A DNA stretch of 64,000 bases, from contig JAQTSY010000002.1 of the NCBI GenBank assembly GCA_028711065.1, positions 73,779 through 137,778 on the forward strand, written 5' to 3'. Positions 1,332 through 53,808 of the stretch are shown in pieces (within the stretch, counting starts at the first letter, position 1; each line of letters starts with the position of its first letter). Below the pieces are notes generated by a model that was given only the letters and a program-made list of their open reading frames with translations, did not search any database and was not told where the DNA came from. The position numbers were made by a program, and so were the translations under genes. The stretch is from Minisyncoccota bacterium (GTDB taxonomy: Bacteria; Patescibacteriota; Minisyncoccia; Phycocordibacterales; JAQTLZ01).

Positions 1332-2522
1332 ATGGCAGAATTTAATCGCTCGAAGCCTCACGTAAACGTCGGTACCATCGGTCACGTCGACCACGGGAAG
1401 ACAACTCTTACCGCGGCAATTCTTAACTCACTCCACCTCTCTGGTCAGACAGTGAAGTTGAAGAAAGTTGACGAAATTGACTCAGCGCCTGAAGAAAAGG
1501 CCCGAGGTATTACGATCGCCCTCTCTCACAACGAATACGAAACAGCAACTCGACACTACGCTCACATCGACGCTCCTGGACACGCCGACTATATTAAGAA
1601 CATGATCACCGGTGCCGCTCAAATGGACGGTGCTATTCTCGTTATCGCAGCTACTGACGGAGTTATGCCACAGACTCGCGAACACGTTCTCCTCGCAAAG
1701 CAGGTTGGAGTACCAAAGATCATCGTCTTCCTAAACAAAGTAGACATGGTTGATGACAAAGATCTCGTCGACCTCGTTGAAGAAGAGGTTCGAGAACTTC
1801 TCACAAAGCAAGGTTTCGATGGAAAAGGTGCTCCAGTTATTCGAGGTTCAGCTTTGAAAGCTCTTGAAGCAACTTCAAAGGATGATGAATGGGTAAAGAA
1901 AATTCTTGAACTCACAAACGCTCTCGATACCTACATCCCAGTTCCAAAGCGAGAAACAGACAAGCCATTTCTTATGCCTATTGAAGACATCTTCTCTATT
2001 GAAGGACGAGGTACTGTAGTGACCGGAAGAATTGAAAGAGGAATGGTAAAAGTTGGAGAAGAAGTTGAAATTGTCGGTATCAAGCCTACAGCAAAGACTG
2101 CTGTGACTGGAATTGAAATGTTCAACAAGCAACTCCAAGAAGGTATGGCTGGAGACAACGCTGGAATATTGCTCCGAGGTACTCGAAAGGAAGACGTGCA
2201 CCGAGGTCAGGTTATCGCAAAGCCAGGTTCAGTTACTCCTCACACAGAATTTACTTCAGAAGTGTACATCTTGAAGAAAGAGGAAGGAGGACGACATACT
2301 CCATTCTTCACTGGATATAAGCCACAATTCTACTTCCGAACAACAGACGTGACTGGAGAAGTAACTCTTCCAGAGAAAACAGAAATGGTTATGCCAGGAG
2401 ATACGATTACTTTCAAAGTGAAATTGGTTGCTCCGATTGCACTTGAAGATCAACAGCGATTTGCTATCCGAGAAGGAGGCAAGACTGTGGGTGCCGGAGT
2501 TGTAACGAAAGTTATCGCTTAA
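1332..2522 (+). CDS. tuf: elongation factor Tu
   Basis: 396 aa. [10 protein letters not shown] and DAPGHADY GTPase motifs are present, with full-length collinearity to EF-Tu. Confidence 0.97.
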
Positions 2523-2543
2523 CTTTTCCTCAATACTATTACT

Positions 2544-2945
2544 ATGGCTGTGAAAGAAACAACTGAAAAGAAGGCCCCTGCAAAGAGAGCGTCTGCGAAG
2601 AAAGCAGTCAAAGTATCTCCCGCTCCAAAAGATGGCGCAATCTCAAAATTGCGCATTCGAGTTCGAGCATACGAATATAAAATTCTTGATCTTTCGGTAA
2701 AGCAGATCATCGACACCGCTCTTCGCTACGATGCGAAAGTTGTCGGCCCTGTTCCGCTTCCAACAGAAATAAATAAATACACAGTCAATCGCTCTGCTTT
2801 CGTCTACAAAAATGCGCGAGAACAGTTCGAAATGCGAGTGCACAAGAGACTTATTGATATCTTGAATCCGTCAGGGAAAATCATCGAGGCTTTGACCAAC
2901 ATGAATCTCCCAAGTGGTGTAGATATCGACGTCAAAATCCTCTAA
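2544..2945 (+). CDS. rpsJ: 30S ribosomal protein S10 with a K/A-rich N-terminal extension
   Basis: The core RIRVRAYEYKILD...NLPSGVDIDVKIL matches S10. It is the first gene of an S10-operon order. Confidence 0.93.
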   Translation: MAVKETTEKKAPAKRASAKKAVKVSPAPKDGAISKLRIRVRAYEYKILDLSVKQIIDTALRYDAKVVGPVPLPTEINKYTVNRSAFVYKNAREQFEMRVHKRLIDILNPSGKIIEALTNMNLPSGVDIDVKIL

Positions 2946-3039
2946 ACAAAAAGAGGGAAGTAGAATAGCTTAAAATGGCTTTAAGCTTTACTTTTTGGTC
3001 TGTTTCTGTTAAGTTGAGTGAGATTTTTTTGCAAAAAAC

Positions 3040-3642
3040 ATGAAATTCGTCCTAGGACAAAAGGTAAATATGACGCAAGTCTTCGATGAAAACGGGGCTC
3101 TTCACCCTGGCACGATTATTTCCTGTGGTGCAAACGTCGTTACTCAAGTAAAGACAGACGAAAAAGATGGCTACAAAGCTGTGCAAATCGGCTACGGAAC
3201 TCGAAATCCAAAGAACGTAAATAAGGCTCAAAAAGGCCACACAAAAGAGCTTGGAAATTTCTCTAATTTCCGAGAATTTACAGGCGTTTCAGATCTTAAA
3301 GTCGGCGACACACTTAGCCCAGCACTTTTCAAAGTGGGGGAGAAGGTTGTTATCACTTCCGTTTCAAAAGGAAAAGGATTCCAGGGTGTTATCAAGCGAC
3401 ACGGTTTCGGCGGAGGACGACGAACACACGGACAGAAACACTCTGAACGAGAACCAGGTTCTATTGGAGGAGGACTTCGAACACGCGTTCCAAAAGGAAT
3501 GAGAATGGGAGGCAGAATGGGACAAGACACGATTACCTCAAAAGGTATGACTGTGCTTATGGTTGACGAAGCAAAACGAGAAATTATTATCGGCGGAGCG
3601 GTTCCAGGACGAAGAGGAACACTTGTCGAAATCAAAGGCTAA
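3040..3642 (+). CDS. rplC: 50S ribosomal protein L3
   Basis: The 200-aa product matches L3 and sits in operon position. Confidence 0.93.
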   Translation: MKFVLGQKVNMTQVFDENGALHPGTIISCGANVVTQVKTDEKDGYKAVQIGYGTRNPKNVNKAQKGHTKELGNFSNFREFTGVSDLKVGDTLSPALFKVGEKVVITSVSKGKGFQGVIKRHGFGGGRRTHGQKHSEREPGSIGGGLRTRVPKGMRMGGRMGQDTITSKGMTVLMVDEAKREIIIGGAVPGRRGTLVEIKG

Positions 3643-3643
3643 T

Positions 3644-4315
3644 ATGGAAGCAACAGTCTACAACCAAAGAGGTATGGAAACAGGGAAAGTAAAACTTCCC
3701 GAGGCAGTATTCGGCGTTCACTGGAATTCTGACTTGGTTCACCAAGTGACAACTTCGATGAAGACCAATGCTCGAAAGCCTGTTGCTCACACAAAGACTC
3801 GAGGAGAAGTGCGAGGAGGAGGCAAGAAGCCTTGGAGACAGAAAGGTACTGGCCGAGCTCGTCACGGTTCTACTCGTTCTCCAATCTGGGTTGGCGGAGG
3901 TGTTGCTCACGGTCCTCGAAATGATCAGAATTTCACTCGAAAAATCAATCGTTCAATGAAGGCGAAAGCTCTCTACACGATCCTTTCCCGAAAATTGAAA
4001 GACAAAGAAATCATCTTTGTTGATACTTTGAATATGGACAGCGGAAAAACAAAAGATGCAAAGGAGATCGTTATGAATCTCGGCAAGATCGCAGGCTTTG
4101 AAAAGCTTTCAACAAAACGAAAGAATGCCGCTTATATCACTCTTGGACATAAGGATGTTGCGGTAGAGCGAGGTTTCGGAAACTTTGGAAATGTCACTGT
4201 GGATGAACTTCGAAATATGAATCCAATGGACTTGATGCAGAATGCATATCTCATCATCACAGAACCAGAAAAGTCGTTCGAGTTTTTGGCTTCTAAGCTA
4301 CCAGCTAAAAGCTAA
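3644..4315 (+). CDS. rplD: 50S ribosomal protein L4
   Basis: The listed ORF 3563..4315 overlaps rplC. An ATG at 3644 lies immediately after the rplC stop and gives a typical ~224-aa L4 (MEATVYNQRG...). Confidence 0.88.
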   Translation: MEATVYNQRGMETGKVKLPEAVFGVHWNSDLVHQVTTSMKTNARKPVAHTKTRGEVRGGGKKPWRQKGTGRARHGSTRSPIWVGGGVAHGPRNDQNFTRKINRSMKAKALYTILSRKLKDKEIIFVDTLNMDSGKTKDAKEIVMNLGKIAGFEKLSTKRKNAAYITLGHKDVAVERGFGNFGNVTVDELRNMNPMDLMQNAYLIITEPEKSFEFLASKLPAKS

Positions 4316-23509: not shown

Positions 23510-23889
23510 AATTAGTGAATAGGTTGACTAAGTGGCGAAAAATTATGCTAATTTTTCAGCGCTTGACTCTCGTTTTTTCGAGCGTATTATAAAAATATGA
23601 ACGACACAGGATTTAAAGGACTTGTCCTCGGCCTTCTCCTCCTTACAAAGGGTGGAGGCTTTCTTCGTGTCTAACTTCTCGAACTAACTAAGATAGATAC
23701 AAAGAAGCCCTCCACCCGAGGGCTGATTTTTGTCACGCAAAAATCATGTCGAAAGATTTTTAGCTAGTGCGTAAAAATTTTCGACATAAATTTAATAGTT
23801 CTTTTGTGTTTAGTTCTTTCACATTGTCATTGTGCAGTTTGAGATTTTGGGGGATTTGCGGCCTACGGGTCCAGAAAGGGGAAAAGATC

Positions 23890-24180
23890 ATGGCGTGGAA
23901 ACTTGTAACGTTCTCGACCGATCTCAAGGATAAACCCGGCTTCACTTCTACCGGTATTCTCGTCACTGTCACTGTGCAGAAAGGCAAGAGGGAGCTAGTC
24001 AAGGGAGCTGGCGCAGATCCTGATCCATTCCGTGCGGGCTGGCTAGCGGTTGAGAATGCTACCGGTGTCACTCCAAATGGACATGTCCCGACGGCAGGAC
24101 TGGAAGAGTATCTTGCGGTCTGCGTGAAGGAAGTGAATGGCATCGAGCGCACGAGGCAGAAAAGGAGGGAGAGGAAGTGA
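23890..24180 (+). CDS. hypothetical protein
   Basis: ORF with an AAAGGGG RBS-like sequence upstream. The terminator hairpin CCAGCGCGTCAGCGCTGG plus a T-tract at 24199-24224 follows. Confidence 0.4.
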   Translation: MAWKLVTFSTDLKDKPGFTSTGILVTVTVQKGKRELVKGAGADPDPFRAGWLAVENATGVTPNGHVPTAGLEEYLAVCVKEVNGIERTRQKRRERK

Positions 24181-24488
24181 TGAAACCATGAAGTCATACC
24201 AGCGCGTCAGCGCTGGTTTTTTGTTTGCCCGTATTCTTTTTTCTTTCTTTGTGTGTTCTCTTGTTGTTTTGAATTTGCATTTTATATAAGAAGAATATAA
24301 TGAGGGTAGGGTTATTTGAGGTATTTTCTAGATTAAATTTATATTCAGGGAGCCATTTCTTTGTGTACGCTTTGGCGCACACTCGGCGGCACCCACCTAG
24401 TTCACACTAGGGGAATACCCGAATAATCCTATAAAGAACACCGCGTTTACGGCGTTTTTTGTTGCCTTTTTTCTGATACAATGAGAGG

Positions 24489-26329: not shown

Positions 26330-26674
26330 TTAAATTGCTTTCGCAACAAGTTTCTTCATTGTTTCAGGATGAAACTCGATAAGGTCTGCCATAATCTTTC
26401 GGTCAACCATAATGTTTTTCTTTTTCAAAGCACCAATGAATTTGCTGTATGAAGAACCGTTTGCTTTGAGGTATGCGCCGATCTTTACGTTCCAGAGCAT
26501 TCGGTAATCATTCTTCTTATCTTTTCGGTGAGCGAATGAGTATTTTCCAGCGTGATAGAGAGCTTCATACGCTGCTCGCTCATTTTTTGAACGTCGAAAA
26601 CGATATCCTTTTACTTGTTTGAGGACATTTCGTCGTGTCTTCAGTGCATTTACTCCTTTCTTTACTCTGGTCAT
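26330..26674 (-). CDS. rplT: 50S ribosomal protein L20
   Basis: 114 aa matching L20. Confidence 0.93.
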   Translation of the reverse strand: MTRVKKGVNALKTRRNVLKQVKGYRFRRSKNERAAYEALYHAGKYSFAHRKDKKNDYRMLWNVKIGAYLKANGSSYSKFIGALKKKNIMVDRKIMADLIEFHPETMKKLVAKAI

Positions 26675-26686
26675 TTCAGTATCGAA

Positions 26687-26875
26687 TTATCCGATAATAA
26701 ATCTAGCCCTGTCTTTGTTGCTAATAGGGAATGGGAAATCAGCTCCTCGGCGCTTTGCCATTTGAGCTCGTCGTGATTCTTTCGCGTTAAAGTGGTTTTG
26801 GCCCGCTTTTCGAGCAGTAATTTTGCCGTTTTTGCTCACTTTTAAGCGCTTCATGTATGACTTGTTTGTCTTCAT
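26687..26875 (-). CDS. rpmI: 50S ribosomal protein L35
   Basis: 62 aa basic protein upstream of rplT. Confidence 0.85.
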   Translation of the reverse strand: MKTNKSYMKRLKVSKNGKITARKAGQNHFNAKESRRAQMAKRRGADFPFPISNKDRARFIIG

Positions 26876-26937
26876 GTATAGGGCAGTATCCTACAGGAAT
26901 AAGGCGAATTTGTCCACTTTTGAGCCATGAAACAGCA

Positions 26938-26967
26938 CTTGACTTTTTGGCTATATATGTGATATAA
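26938..26967 (+). promoter_or_regulatory. sigma70-like promoter TTGACT-N18-TATAAT upstream of the DGR target gene
   Basis: Consensus hexamers. Downstream is a 12-bp stem hairpin (TCGCCATAGCCA...TGGCTATGGCGA) at ~27040-27092. Confidence 0.5.
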
Positions 26968-27094
26968 TAGCGATAGTTTAGAACCTTAAAAAAGCAAAGG
27001 AAATCAAGTCGCCATAGCCACAAGTGCCCGCAAGCCGGACGTTTCTGGCTATGGCGAAAATGATCGCCCACTAGCAAATTCAAAAGGCGCAACA

Positions 27095-27742
27095 TTGTTC
27101 GTAAGAACTGTTGCATACAAGGAGGATGACGCCGTGGATAAAACCATGACCCCGTCCGAGAGCATCAGCACCGGAAAGATCGGCAAGATTCAGGAACTTC
27201 TGGGAGCAGGGCTTCGCAAGTCGGGATTGCCCGACGGTCCGGTTCAGAAAGTGCTTGAGCATCAGGGCGACGCGCTCACCACAGAACTCGTCGCGGTGAT
27301 CCGAAAGTTTGTCGAAGCGATCGGCGAGATGTTCTCGCGCATCGTCAAGGTGAACCGCAAGCGCACCCCGAAAGAGGCGCTCAAGGCCACCGGCCGTAAA
27401 CTCTACGTCAACGACGACGTGGTGGAAGCTATGCCGCGCGGCGAAGGTACCGAAACGGAGGTTCACTTCTTCAAGGTCGGTAAGTATTTGACTGACGAAG
27501 AACTCGACAAGGAATACGAACTCCGCGGGCTCAAACCCGCCGATCCGTACTCCGTCGCCGCGGTGAACGAAGCTGATCCTGCCTTTGCCGATGAGAAGCC
27601 CAACGGCACTCACTGGAAAGACAAAGACGGTAAGTGGTGTTTCGCGGCGTTCAATCGCTGGCGCGGCGAGCGCAGGGTGGGCGTGGACCGCGACGACGAC
27701 GGCTGGAGTGGCCACTGGTGGTTCGCCGGCGTCCGCAAGTAG
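27095..27742 (+). CDS. DGR target (variable) protein; GC-rich (~58%) relative to the genome; VR at the C-terminus; probable start GTG 27134 after AAGGAGGA
   Basis: The C-terminal 97 nt match the downstream template repeat except at template adenines. Confidence 0.8.
   Translation: MFVRTVAYKEDDAVDKTMTPSESISTGKIGKIQELLGAGLRKSGLPDGPVQKVLEHQGDALTTELVAVIRKFVEAIGEMFSRIVKVNRKRTPKEALKATGRKLYVNDDVVEAMPRGEGTETEVHFFKVGKYLTDEELDKEYELRGLKPADPYSVAAVNEADPAFADEKPNGTHWKDKDGKWCFAAFNRWRGERRVGVDRDDDGWSGHWWFAGVRK
27640..27736 (+). repeat. DGR variable repeat (VR)
   Basis: 97/97 alignable with TR 28093-28189. There are 14 mismatches, every one at a TR adenine (VR has G or C). A GC-rich IMH-like 3' end (GGTTCGCCGGCGTCCGC) is followed by hairpin CAAGTAgcacttcgTACTTG. 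Confidence 0.85.
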
Positions 27743-28092
27743 CACTTCGTACTTGCGACACTTCGCACTTTTGGATCCTTTGTCCTTTGTTCGCAAAACG
27801 CTTTTGGAAGATACGCGTCAAACTTCCAGCCCGGTACATCTGTATCGGGTTTTTTCGTGCTAAAATAAAGACGGCTGTAGGTGAATATGCAGAAGATTAC
27901 GATTTTCTGCTGCCGAAACCAGTATCCGCAAGTTGAGAGCGTCTGCGATCACGGTTTCAGACGGAGGACTTGCGAAGACACTTCACAAAAAATGAAGCTA
28001 CTTGGTATAAAGTGTTAGGGCATTTCGATGCCGGATACGATACAACCTTGAGAGTATTCAAGAGGTGGTGACAAAGAAGGCATTTTATACAA

Positions 28093-28189
28093 TTTCGCGA
28101 CGTTCAATCGCTGGAACGACGAGCGCAAGGTGAACGTGAACCGCAACGACAACAGCTGGAATGACAACTGGTGGTTCGCCGGCGTCCGC
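28093..28189 (+). repeat. DGR template repeat (TR), rich in AAC codons
   Basis: See VR. A hairpin CTCTCCTACttttGTAGGAGAG lies downstream. Confidence 0.85.
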
Positions 28190-28607
28190 TACTCGCTTCG
28201 TTTCTCTCCTACTTTTGTAGGAGAGTTTCGTTTATCCCGAGCATTGTCGAGGGATTTGGAGAGTTGTCCGCTCCAACCACCGAGCATTTTGCCGATCTCT
28301 TCGATTTTTAGGGAAAGAGCGATGTATTTTTTGTTGTCGATCGACTTTGTTTCCCAGAGAACCATCACTAATATTTTCAGAGTGTCTATTTTTCGCACAG
28401 CCAGACGCACGTAGGGAATTTTTTCTTCACGAGAAAGAAACGTCGCAATACTGATCGCTTCTATGCTTTCGACAAACAGTGAATCAACCCTTTGTCCGAG
28501 GGAATGCCGATGGGCTTTCGGCAGGATTTGATAGTAGCTATACCAAAGGATATAAACATCTTTTATTTTCTGGAGAAGTGGAAGAAGCTTTGCGGGGGGG
28601 GGGGCAT
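28189..28607 (-). CDS. avd: DGR accessory variability determinant (Avd; four-helix-bundle / 23S rRNA IVS-protein family). The reading frame is interrupted by a G11 (C11 on the coding strand) homopolymer at 28594-28604
   Basis: The C-terminal 73 aa (listed ORF 28189..28410) and upstream in-frame residues (...LGQRVDSLFVESIEAISIA...KIEEIGKMLGGW) match the four-helix-bundle IVS/Avd family. The ATG at 28605-28607 is in frame only if the tract were 12 nt. The 419-nt span is not a multiple of 3. Confidence 0.6.
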
Positions 28608-28638
28608 AGAGGCTTGAGAATTCATGGTGTAATATGTT

Positions 28639-29652
28639 TTGATGCTGAAAAAACTTGATAATGCATACGACAATATCATATCTTTGGAAAATTTACTTTT
28701 AGCATGGCAGGAGTTTTTGAGCGGGAAGAAGAAGCGAGAAGATGTGCAAGAATTCGAGCGAAATTTGATGCAAAATCTTATTTCACTTCATTCCGATCTT
28801 TCCGCGAAAACATATCGTCACGGAGCATACCATTATTTCGTCGTCTCTGATCCGAAACGGCGCGATATTCATAAAGCGACTGTCCGCGACAGGATAGTGC
28901 ATCGAGCAGTCTATCGAATTTTGTATCCGTATTTTGATCGGAAATTTATTCCTGATTCGTATTCTTGCCGGAATTTCAAAGGAACGCATCGAGCACTCGA
29001 TCGCTTTCGGGATTTCGGGAGAAAAGTTTCCCGAAATCACACTTGCACCTGTTGGGTCTTGAAGTGCGATATCCGCAAGTTTTTCGCTTCGATTGATCAC
29101 AAAACGCTTTTTACAATTTTGGGAAAGCACATTTCGGATGCAGATACGCTTTGGCTTTTGCGAGGAATTGTCGGCAGTTTTCATTCAAAAAGAGAAGGTG
29201 TCGGATTGCCACTTGGAAATTTAACTTCGCAACTTCTGGTGAACATTTACATGAACGAATTTGATCAATTCGTAAAGCATCGACTGAAAGTAAAATATTA
29301 CATTCGCTACGCTGATGATTTTGTTTTTCTCCACGAGGACAAAGCTGTGCTTGAAGAGCTTTTGCCGAAGATTGGAGATTTTTTGGAAGAGAAATTAGAA
29401 CTTTCTTTGCATCCCGACAAAGTGTTTATTAAAACATTTTCCTCTGGTGTGGATTTTCTCGGATGGATGCACTTTCCGAATCATCGAGTATTGAGAGCAG
29501 CGACGAAGCGAAGAATGATGAGGACTATAGAAGCGAAAAAAGGAAAAACAGAGACCCTTCAGTCTTATCTTGGGCTTTTATCTCACGGGAATACAAAAAA
29601 ACTGCAGAGAAAAATACGAACCATCAACTTGGAAGCTTGGCTTCCAAGTTGA
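28639..29652 (+). CDS. DGR reverse transcriptase
   Basis: RT motifs with the DGR-diagnostic LPLGNLTSQLLVNIYM in motif 4 (group II introns have QGxxxSP). YADDFVF in motif 5. No maturase or endonuclease domain. Confidence 0.85.
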   Translation: MMLKKLDNAYDNIISLENLLLAWQEFLSGKKKREDVQEFERNLMQNLISLHSDLSAKTYRHGAYHYFVVSDPKRRDIHKATVRDRIVHRAVYRILYPYFDRKFIPDSYSCRNFKGTHRALDRFRDFGRKVSRNHTCTCWVLKCDIRKFFASIDHKTLFTILGKHISDADTLWLLRGIVGSFHSKREGVGLPLGNLTSQLLVNIYMNEFDQFVKHRLKVKYYIRYADDFVFLHEDKAVLEELLPKIGDFLEEKLELSLHPDKVFIKTFSSGVDFLGWMHFPNHRVLRAATKRRMMRTIEAKKGKTETLQSYLGLLSHGNTKKLQRKIRTINLEAWLPS

Positions 29653-29655
29653 TGG

Positions 29656-30246
29656 TCAAACCTTTGGTGCGGGGTTTTCCGGTTTTGGCACGATCGGAGC
29701 TGCTGCAGGAGCTTTTTTAGCTAAAAGAGTCTGCACCCCGCCTGTTCCTTTTTCGACAATGATGGTGATACCTTTGGGACTCTTTGTTGGGCCGTCGGCG
29801 ATTCTAAATTCTTCGGTGATGAGCATGAGGATGCGGTTCAAGCGTTCTTTGAGGAAATTAAAATCCATGTATTTTGCCCGGCCGGAAAGGAAGAGGTCGA
29901 TTTTTATTCTATGACCTTCTTTGAGCCACTTACTCGCATTTTTCGCTTTCAAATTGAGGTCGTGGTCTCCAGTGCCTATTTTCACTTGGAGTGTTTTCAT
30001 CTCGATGATATGCATTTTCGACTTCGCGACTTTCGCTTTTTTATTTTCGTCGTATTGATATTTTCCGAAGTCAGTAATTTTGGCTACAGGAGGTACTGCG
30101 GTAGGGGAGATTTCTATAAGATCGAGTCCGAGCGCCGCTGCTTTATCCATCGCGTCTTTAAAAGAGATAACGCCAAAATTCTCGCCTTCGGGACCGATGA
30201 CGCGTAGTTCTGCCGATCGTATTTGATGATTAATTCTAGCTTTCAA
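29656..30246 (-). CDS. infC: translation initiation factor IF-3 (C-terminal A/P-rich tail)
   Basis: IF-3 N- and C-domains. It lies upstream of rpmI-rplT on the same strand, separated from them by the DGR. Confidence 0.9.
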   Translation of the reverse strand: MKARINHQIRSAELRVIGPEGENFGVISFKDAMDKAAALGLDLIEISPTAVPPVAKITDFGKYQYDENKKAKVAKSKMHIIEMKTLQVKIGTGDHDLNLKAKNASKWLKEGHRIKIDLFLSGRAKYMDFNFLKERLNRILMLITEEFRIADGPTKSPKGITIIVEKGTGGVQTLLAKKAPAAAPIVPKPENPAPKV

Positions 30247-30278: not shown

Positions 30279-30388
30279 GGTCGCGAAATGTAGTATTTTA
30301 AAAACGCGACATAAAACTTTGCTAAGTTTTTGCTATGCTCGGCCCAGCCGGCCTGCGCAATGTTTTTAAAATACTACATTTCGCGACC
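30279..30388. repeat. 110-bp palindromic element between cls and infC: perfect 27-bp arms (GGTCGCGAAATGTAGTATTTTAAAAAC) around a GC-rich inner hairpin
   Basis: Arms at 30279-30305 and 30362-30388 are exact reverse complements. Confidence 0.75.
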
Positions 30389-53412: not shown

Positions 53413-53808
53413 ATGCCCCCAGACGAAACCACGACTCCAGAACCTGTTGCCCCCGGCCCCGAAACGCCAGTTTCGGGCGATTCCCCAGAACCCCCAGAAA
53501 CCACCCCTCCCGAAGAATCAAGCCCCCAAGCACCCCCTGAGGCCCCAGAAGCCCCTAGAAGCGACGGTAATTTAGGAGCGGTCATGGACACAGCTCCTAA
53601 AACCGAGCCCTTTCTTTCAAGGGAGCCCGCCACGCTTCCCGAATTCGCGTGGCGGGAAATCGTGCGCGCACGGTGGGTGGGGCAAGCACATACAAAATTG
53701 AGTCTCGGGCTCCTCGGGCATTTTCCGCGACGGGCTTTTTACAATAATGAGCGCCGACCCGAACGAAGAGAAGAAACTTTGGTAGCGAAAGCGACACCAC
53801 GAACATGA
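53413..53808 (+). CDS. Pro/Glu/Thr-rich hypothetical ORF inside a ~60% GC patch (53400-54060); coding status doubtful
   Basis: ORF with a compositional anomaly. Both strands have overlapping ORFs. Confidence 0.2.
   Translation: MPPDETTTPEPVAPGPETPVSGDSPEPPETTPPEESSPQAPPEAPEAPRSDGNLGAVMDTAPKTEPFLSREPATLPEFAWREIVRARWVGQAHTKLSLGLLGHFPRRAFYNNERRPERREETLVAKATPRT

Follow-up and report, generated by a model that had tools for sequence, protein, structure and literature searches.

We have analyzed a stretch of 64,000 nucleotides from a contig of a Minisyncoccota bacterium (JAQTSY010000002.1, positions 73,779 to 137,778 of the forward strand), referred to here as the window, in which a diversity-generating retroelement (DGR) lies between infC, the gene for translation initiation factor IF3, and rpmI and rplT, which encode ribosomal proteins L35 and L20. 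The cassette is arranged in the order target gene, template repeat (TR), avd and reverse transcriptase (RT), with avd on the minus strand and the other three on the plus strand, and the target gene, avd and RT are the only open reading frames (ORFs) in the inserted DNA. The coordinates of these and of the associated features are collected in Table 1.

The variable repeat (VR) at the 3′ end of the target ORF and the TR can be compared over 97 nt (27640-27736 with 28093-28189), revealing 14 mismatches, all of them at TR adenines (14 of 24), and codon alignment lengthens the pair to 27638 and 28091 with two further changes at A sites. There are 16 variable codons in the VR, ten of them AAY, corresponding to ∼2e15 possible proteins, and the VR ends 6 nt ahead of the target stop codon. 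Both repeats finish with the same 21-nt adenine-free block, resembling an initiation of mutagenic homing (IMH) sequence, which occurs in the window only at the VR and TR ends (0 occurrences are expected by chance); downstream of the VR there is only a small stem (27754-27767; 5 bp with a 4-nt loop), a putative IMH hairpin. No other targets of the TR were found within the window. DGR-type RTs are recognized by an RVT_1 domain together with an [I/L/V]GxxxSQ motif and YxDD, and the RT translation carries LGNLTSQ and YADD; its best NCBIfam match is to the group II intron RTs, below the cut-off, as might be expected of a relative. The RT, acting with Avd, would copy the TR RNA with misincorporation opposite adenines, and the resulting cDNA would replace the VR such that 16 codons of the target vary.

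The target ORF is open from a TTG at 27095, with the NCBI start at a GTG (27134) and the first ATG at 27146, and its protein is identical to MDD5050376.1, which assigns the window to a metagenome-assembled genome of the Paceibacterota. It has 978 homologues, nearly all of ∼200 amino acids and from Patescibacteria, encoded with or without an adjacent RT gene. An AlphaFold2 model (predicted local distance difference test score 92) shows a helical hairpin followed by an alpha/beta domain, for which the best Foldseek matches in the PDB are C-type lectin-like domains, with weak scores (E 0.03, probability 0.82, template modeling scores of 0.37-0.48). No hydrophobic segment is obvious by eye at the N-terminus, where no prediction tool was run.

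The cassette has much in common with the DGR of Bordetella phage BPP-1 (mtd-avd-TR-brt), including the A-specific TR-to-VR differences, a GC-rich 3′ block that is free of A in both VR and TR, an accessory protein of the Avd family, [I/L]GxxxSQ and YADD motifs in the RT, and a variable protein that may likewise be of the C-type-lectin type. In BPP-1 all of the parts are co-directional and the functional RNA is composed of the avd 3′ end, the TR and the 3′ spacer, whereas in the window avd is antisense, the conserved structured RNA is found on the 5′ side of the TR, and the TR is directly followed by a predicted terminator.

The interrupted infC-rpmI-rplT operon

The original prediction for this locus held that infC, rpmI and rplT are co-directional on the minus strand and normally contiguous, and that about 2.8 kb carrying a DGR separates infC from rpmI. 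Both statements are borne out by the Pfam identities of the three genes, by an rpmI-infC gap of 2780 nt containing the A-specific VR/TR pair and the RVT_1 RT, and by the gene order in relatives. A scan for IF3 in species-representative genomes gave 80 loci, 69 of which are of the Paceibacteria type; the three genes are contiguous in all 69 of these, with ∼10-240 nt between infC and rpmI, and none shares the interruption. Because this holds for all 69 relatives, including one whose IF3 is 95% identical, comparison of the sequences identifies the cassette as an insertion into an otherwise contiguous infC-rpmI-rplT unit. That closest locus, L001, has L35 and L20 proteins with 100% and 99% identity to those of the window, a spacer of 72 nt, and the gene order PLD-infC-rpmI-rplT-RNase J in common with the window flanks.

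The edges of the insertion can be placed quite closely. Homology to L001 and to a second relative, L002, ends at window position 29676 and restarts at 26879 by blastn, and alignment of the spacer with both relatives by eye puts the insert edges directly past the infC stop codon and ahead of GGCTCAAAAG-TGGACA; the differences of infC from its relatives are confined to the poorly conserved C-terminal tail. The DGR would have entered a gap of a few bases separating the infC stop codon from the rpmI-rplT promoter, after the split from the closest sampled relatives. It could be proposed instead that an ancestral DGR at this site was lost from the relatives, or that the contig is chimeric, since only one assembly lineage of the window genome is at hand. 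Neither proposal has direct support, and with short spacers free of remnants in 69 of 69 relatives and synteny holding on both flanks we consider the probability of either to be very slight. Moreover, Logan contig L174 (SRR22315508), an independent assembly, is 100% identical over window positions 26815-28676, and because this span includes the rpmI/cassette junction, the junction is not one assembler's artefact.

Insertion at this site appears to be idiosyncratic. We scanned for relatives of the RT, keeping the best 80 (62-68% identical) of 590 metagenomic relatives and nine IMG/VR loci, and in none of these ∼90 related RT loci is infC, rpmI or rplT found within 8 kb. The 140 genes immediately next to 48 related cassettes fall into 138 Pfam families, with an integrase in only two cases, and the related cassettes show no preferred site and no carrier element. 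The insert in the window is similarly bare: searched for the features of an autonomous mobile element, it contains no transposase or integrase and has no terminal repeats or target-site duplication, its ends match no other fetched locus, and Rfam gives no intron match, at the gathering score over the whole window and at E≤1 over 26800-28700. The locus provides a clean pair of filled and empty sites for a DGR.

Two other observations concern the surroundings of the operon. Between the PLD-family gene and infC is an inverted repeat of 27 nt (30279-30388), perfect and with its arms 56 nt apart; the window has a single copy of it and none of the fetched loci contains it. The corresponding spacer in L001 is only 35 nt, indicating that the window has a second small insertion beside the operon. 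In L021, a distant relative, an RT-less DGR remnant (1534-3800) lies directly after rplT, comprising avd with a C10 tract, a TR (2363-2476) and a target gene (2771-3421) with 20 of 21 mismatches at A sites, and it is situated between direct repeats of 187 nt duplicating the 3′ end of the gene that follows. A DGR remnant beside rplT in one of 69 loci is an occurrence for which chance would suffice.

Table 1. Features of the infC-rpmI-rplT region and its DGR cassette (window positions).
Feature	Position	Strand	Details and basis
rplT (ribosomal protein L20)	26330-26674	minus	Pfam Ribosomal_L20 3e-27; 99% amino acid identity to L001
rpmI (ribosomal protein L35)	26687-26875	minus	Pfam Ribosomal_L35p 4.6e-8; 100% amino acid identity to L001 and L002
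rpmI promoter-like site	26888-26916	minus	TGGACA-17-TAGGAT; consensus scan 9/12; conserved in L001, L002
Inserted DNA (whole DGR cassette)	26927-29655		∼2729 bp; blastn and hand-aligned spacer
Target-gene promoter-like site	26939-26968	plus	TTGACT-18-TATAAT with TG; 11/12, best in region; predicted
DGR target gene	27134-27742	plus	∼200 amino acids; N-terminal helical hairpin and putative C-type-lectin-like domain
VR	27638-27736	plus	3′ end of target ORF; A-free 3′ block 27716-27736 (IMH-like)
Terminator-like hairpin and T-run of target gene	27828-27857	plus	structure prediction
Candidate template-RNA promoter	27858-27866	plus	extended -10-like TGcTAAAAT; predicted
Structured 5′ domain of template RNA	27875-28090	plus	∼215 nt; covariation; DNA conservation 70-86% across loci
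TR	28091-28189	plus	repeat comparison and codon alignment
Hairpin and T-run after TR, terminator-like	28204-28235	plus	-17.2 kcal/mol, z -4.9; overlaps antisense avd 3′ end
avd body (accessory protein, four-helix bundle)	28189-28593	minus	open, intact; Pfam bAvd, NCBIfam DivGenRetAVD
Simple-sequence repeat, C11 on avd strand (G11 on plus)	28594-28604	minus	encodes PPP
DGR reverse transcriptase	28642-29652	plus	start ATG 28642 or TTG 28639; Pfam RVT_1 6e-24
18-bp perfect palindrome at right end of insert	29619-29657		terminator-like for infC, possibly RT; -29.4 kcal/mol, z -6.4 on minus strand
infC (IF3)	29656-30246	minus	intact; Pfam IF3_N 2e-25, IF3_C 2.5e-10; 95% identity to L001 over residues 1-195

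Transcription signals and the template RNA

It was originally predicted that rpmI and rplT would need either a promoter of their own or read-through of the cassette. A promoter-like site is predicted at 26916-26888 and is kept in L001 and L002, whose infC-rpmI spacers read TAGACA/TGGACA-17-TATAAG/TATAAT at the same position. Sequence conservation indicates that this internal rpmI promoter probably predates the insertion and, because it was probably already there, the infC-rpmI spacer would be a tolerant site. At the other end of the insert, the minus strand of the palindrome lies past the infC stop codon and is followed by a U-rich tract, such that it would halt infC transcription before antisense passage through RT; neither L001 nor L002 has the palindrome, and it is likewise missing from the other DGR loci. 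Survival of the operon could thus be accounted for by an insert-borne hairpin terminator after infC together with a retained promoter for rpmI-rplT. We infer that a bare cassette of 2.7 kb, lacking a recombinase, can settle in one of the most conserved translation operons and not disrupt it, because it carries its own terminator and the internal promoter already present is left in place. This is a useful datum on the spread of DGRs in the tiny genomes of the Candidate Phyla Radiation (CPR), if an unsurprising one to the specialist.

The infC-rpmI-rplT operons of E. coli and B. subtilis have the same three genes in the same order on a single strand, but the unit in the window is broken by a 2.7-kb element transcribed mainly in the opposite direction. 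A search against Rfam gave no match at the gathering score anywhere in the window, either to the L20 leader, to introns or to any other family, and none at E≤1 in 26800-28700, an interval including the spacer upstream of rpmI and the template RNA. The regulation described for this operon in model bacteria should not be assumed here.

Within the cassette the predicted signals would define four units, namely the target gene, the template RNA, avd converging on the TR terminator, and RT divergent from avd. For the second of these, an element of the form TGnTAnAAT is aligned in most of 24 related loci at the position of the candidate promoter, and the structured domain that follows includes a 12-bp helix (28005-28016 with 28079-28090) whose 3′ strand closes directly onto the TR. 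RNAalifold analysis of the 24 loci gives 30 pairs, 25 of them with compensatory double changes, and a set of 35 related loci gives 19 pairs, of which 16 are compensatory; the hairpin after the TR is also kept in other loci with compensatory changes. From these covariation patterns the template appears to be a self-contained structured RNA of ∼350 nt (27858-28235), transcribed towards avd. The covarying RNA shows the form that a CPR DGR RNA takes, and should be useful for reconstituting or engineering compact systems.

The divergent starts are close together, the ATG of the avd leader (28625-28623 on the minus strand) being 16 nt from that of RT (28642). The sequence TGgTGTAAT at 28625-28633 is a possible extended -10 element that would yield a nearly leaderless RT mRNA, although this is speculative.

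The avd repeat tract

When corrected for frame, Avd scores 45.6 bits against Pfam bAvd (cut-off 40) and 65.3 bits, 5e-18, against NCBIfam DivGenRetAVD (cut-off 80), and it is 62% identical to the Avd of the related locus L081. However, no ATG, GTG or TTG start codon was found in frame with the avd body; leader ATGs at 28625-28623 and 28607-28605 read into the C11 tract and exit one base off the avd body frame. A sequencing error at the G-run was considered as the sole cause of the frameshift and rejected, the independent assembly also having G11 and the tract being present clade-wide.

Repeat tracts at the same avd 5′ site are found in ∼90% of related loci, consisting of poly-C of 6-12 nt, (CT)10-15, (CA)10 or (GCCA)9-11. 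They are highly specific to this position, with 76 at the avd 5′ site versus one elsewhere in 810 kb and no other in the 64-kb window. A tract together with an upstream ATG is present in 65 of the 73 non-identical loci: of these, 17 are in frame, 20 are offset by one base, 21 by two, and seven have ATGs in both wrong frames. The in-frame share is indistinguishable from the expectation of one-third (p=0.24), and a short leader of the form M-x-E-L/F-N... is alike, by eye, in several in-frame and out-of-frame loci. Tract length also differs between close relatives. L126 and L129 are 99.4% identical over 3150 nt and have 15 differences in the VR, 14 of them at TR adenines; the tract in L126 is C10 and in frame, that in L129 is C8 and out of frame, and only two other bases differ besides those in the VR. 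The tracts of L099 and L132 have 9 and 11 units.

The even spread over the frames and the site-specificity of the tract suggest that avd undergoes phase variation by slipped-strand mispairing, and the window avd, one base out of frame at C11, would then be in the OFF state of the switch. That avd in Patescibacteria is more generally a contingency locus, in which a slippage-prone repeat stochastically toggles hypermutation so that only a subpopulation diversifies its target, is a proposal whose chances on the sequence comparisons we would put at about even. There are clear parallels with the simple-sequence repeat contingency loci of Neisseria, Haemophilus and Campylobacter, in which a hypermutable repeat is also located just past the start codon, the frames are represented about evenly, repeat units vary at the same site among relatives, and lengths differ between near-identical loci. 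Those loci mostly switch surface or restriction-modification genes, whereas the candidate switched gene here is the accessory factor of a targeted mutator.

Two other explanations for the state of avd need to be considered. The first is that the DGR is decaying, with avd an ordinary frameshift pseudogene and the VR/TR differences relics of past activity, as might be suspected from the lack of a canonical start in frame with the avd body, from our finding only identical copies of the locus, and from the RT-less DGR remnant in the relative L021. Yet the Avd domain is open over its full length, RT and TR are intact, as are the IMH-like block and every RNA element, and the frame is broken exactly in a tract that occupies the same site in ∼90% of related loci and is built from four different repeat units; L126 and L129, moreover, differ in tract length as well as by fresh VR changes at A sites. 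Decay is for these reasons improbable. The second explanation is that transcriptional slippage or ribosomal frameshifting on the C-run yields Avd from an allele that is out of frame, with the tract tuning the dose in place of an on/off switch in the DNA. Long homopolymers are known slippage sites, and most of the consensus sequences (48 of 65) are out of frame yet have VRs showing past activity. However, the shifts needed are evenly divided between offsets of one and two bases with about one quarter of loci in frame, so that no single programmed shift fits, while the (CT)n, (CA)n and (GCCA)n that occur at this site are repeats of the classic DNA-slippage kind and the near-isogenic pair L126 and L129 differ in tract length at the DNA level. 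We therefore regard recoding at the RNA level as unlikely too, if somewhat less so than decay, and favor slipped-strand switching.

Control of DGR activity is, to our knowledge, poorly understood, and a repeat-tract switch in avd offers a concrete hypothesis about it that can be tested. In the literature searched we found no report of a repeat tract in avd or of a covarying 5′ RNA with a promoter-like site and a terminator; if the proposal is correct, the avd switch and the self-contained ∼350-nt template RNA would represent a regulatory layer and an RNA architecture undescribed for DGRs there.

Considered as a whole, the interpretation that a Patescibacteria-type DGR inserted between the infC stop codon and the rpmI promoter, with the operon surviving and avd switched OFF, seems to us to be likely, and we hold it with good confidence. 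Several points weigh against parts of it. The promoter and terminator calls throughout are consensus or structure predictions, and the rpmI site matches at only 9/12. No target-site duplication, terminal repeats or recombinase were found at the insert, which bears on the mechanism of insertion, and, with regard to the source of the cassette, the nearest RT is 68% identical and the nearest distinct target 66-67%. As to current activity, L174 is the sole other copy of the locus and is identical in the VR region, providing no variant of the window locus; its tract is G11 like that in the window, and the tract-length differences that change the frame were seen in clade relatives and not in the window strain. 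The out-of-frame avd could be a dead gene or be rescued by slippage at the RNA level. Finally, the tentative assignment of the modelled target protein to the C-type lectins depends on weak Foldseek scores (E≥0.03).

Relatives of the cassette and the composition of its target gene

Elements of this type are well represented among the Patescibacteria. In nearly all of ∼80 related loci avd lies immediately upstream of RT on the opposite strand, and in 48 a TR abutting the avd 3′ end has a VR ∼450-500 nt upstream of it. Architecture B3 represents 90% of the CPR collection of Wu et al. 2018 (PMC5758913), and by its description, a core of avd, TR and RT with no further accessory gene, the sequence of the window cassette is of this type. 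Roux et al. 2021 (PMC8144416) place such elements in the Patescibacteria-restricted DGR clade 2, with targets lacking known domains. The window cassette shares with these CPR DGRs the order of a target with a C-terminal VR followed by TR, avd and RT, and differs in being located inside infC-rpmI-rplT, unlike the ∼90 related loci; Wu et al. 2018 do record ribosomal protein genes inside five CPR DGRs (PMC5758913). The cassette is an ordinary member of a known CPR DGR clade at an unusual and well-tolerated site, and what is of more interest belongs to the clade as a whole, namely the repeat tract in avd, the structure of the template RNA and the high GC of the targets. A phage origin was considered and not adopted, the viral status of the nine IMG/VR loci with related RTs (≤62% identity) not being established.

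A further arrangement was seen in L081 (5500-11200 of a 595-kb contig), where a DGR adjoins secE-nusG-rplK. Two target/TR modules of different families are present, one with a truncated copy of avd, and they are separated by a Y1-transposase gene (a weak Pfam match to Y1_Tnp) and a 300-nt duplication.

The target gene had been noted to be ∼58% GC against ∼42% for its neighbours, and this was taken to suggest horizontal acquisition. The anomaly itself is real, with a GC content of 59.0% for the target ORF versus 43.9% for the window, and a GC content at third codon positions (GC3) of 0.736 versus 0.404±0.059 for 62 other ORFs (z=5.6); outside the VR the value is 0.70. The conclusion drawn from it does not follow, because RT (GC3 0.40) and avd in the same insert are host-like in composition and because the excess is clade-wide. 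Usable flanks were available for 40 related DGR loci, in which the target is on average 0.107 GC above the flanks (maximum 0.226) and RT 0.032 below them, and the GC-rich targets occur across host GC contents of 0.31-0.56. Members of the window's target family, although only 45-66% identical, have 0.545-0.66 GC in hosts of 0.35-0.56 GC, and the short targets of the clade (L081-L173) are 5-23 GC points above host DNA with RT and avd host-like. High target GC is thus a standing trait of the targets of this DGR clade, and no mark of this insertion or evidence of recent transfer. We found no description of it in the literature searched.

A variant of the transfer hypothesis is that a GC-rich target and TR arrived recently as a foreign module from a GC-rich donor and were joined to a resident low-GC RT and avd. 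The internal contrast in composition is in accord with this (target GC3 0.74 and TR GC 0.59 versus 0.40 for RT), as is the finding that the window's nearest RT neighbours carry unrelated target families, such that modules may be swapped, and Wu et al. 2018 treat deviations of ≥5% in GC as indicating transfer (PMC5758913). We nevertheless consider it doubtful, as the same offset is seen in the 40 loci across the range of host GC, and as family members only 45-66% identical are all ∼0.55-0.66 GC, at which divergence synonymous sites should have equilibrated, so that a standing force is needed. Furthermore, the 2.7-kb insert came in one piece into an empty site, implying that the mixed composition is older than the insertion. 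Comparison of RT and target co-inheritance is uninformative here, as RT identities among loci are saturated at ∼60-66%. A standing trait of the targets remains the better account, and a GC deviation is an unsafe test for DGR transfer in this clade, since its targets are intrinsically GC-rich.

The form of the excess depends on target length. In targets of ∼200-300 amino acids it covers the entire ORF as a sharp-edged plateau, and in those of 600-730 amino acids it is limited to the VR and the ∼200 nt ahead of it; at third codon positions A and T are equally depleted and C gains most. Three candidate causes were rejected. GC-biased repair spreading from the VR does not fit an ORF-confined plateau that drops to zero immediately beyond the VR and where the gene begins; depletion of sense-strand adenines by self-templated mutagenesis does not fit equal falls in A3 and T3 with the greatest rise in C3; and codon adaptation does not fit the ordinary GC3 of the ribosomal protein genes in the window.

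Two other segments of the window have elevated GC. An intergenic segment at 23760-24197 is 51-53% GC with long ORFs on both strands, suggesting a structured RNA gene, and has no match in Rfam better than E 0.1. An ORF at 53413-53808 is 58.6% GC and encodes a low-complexity N-terminus rich in Pro, Glu and Thr.

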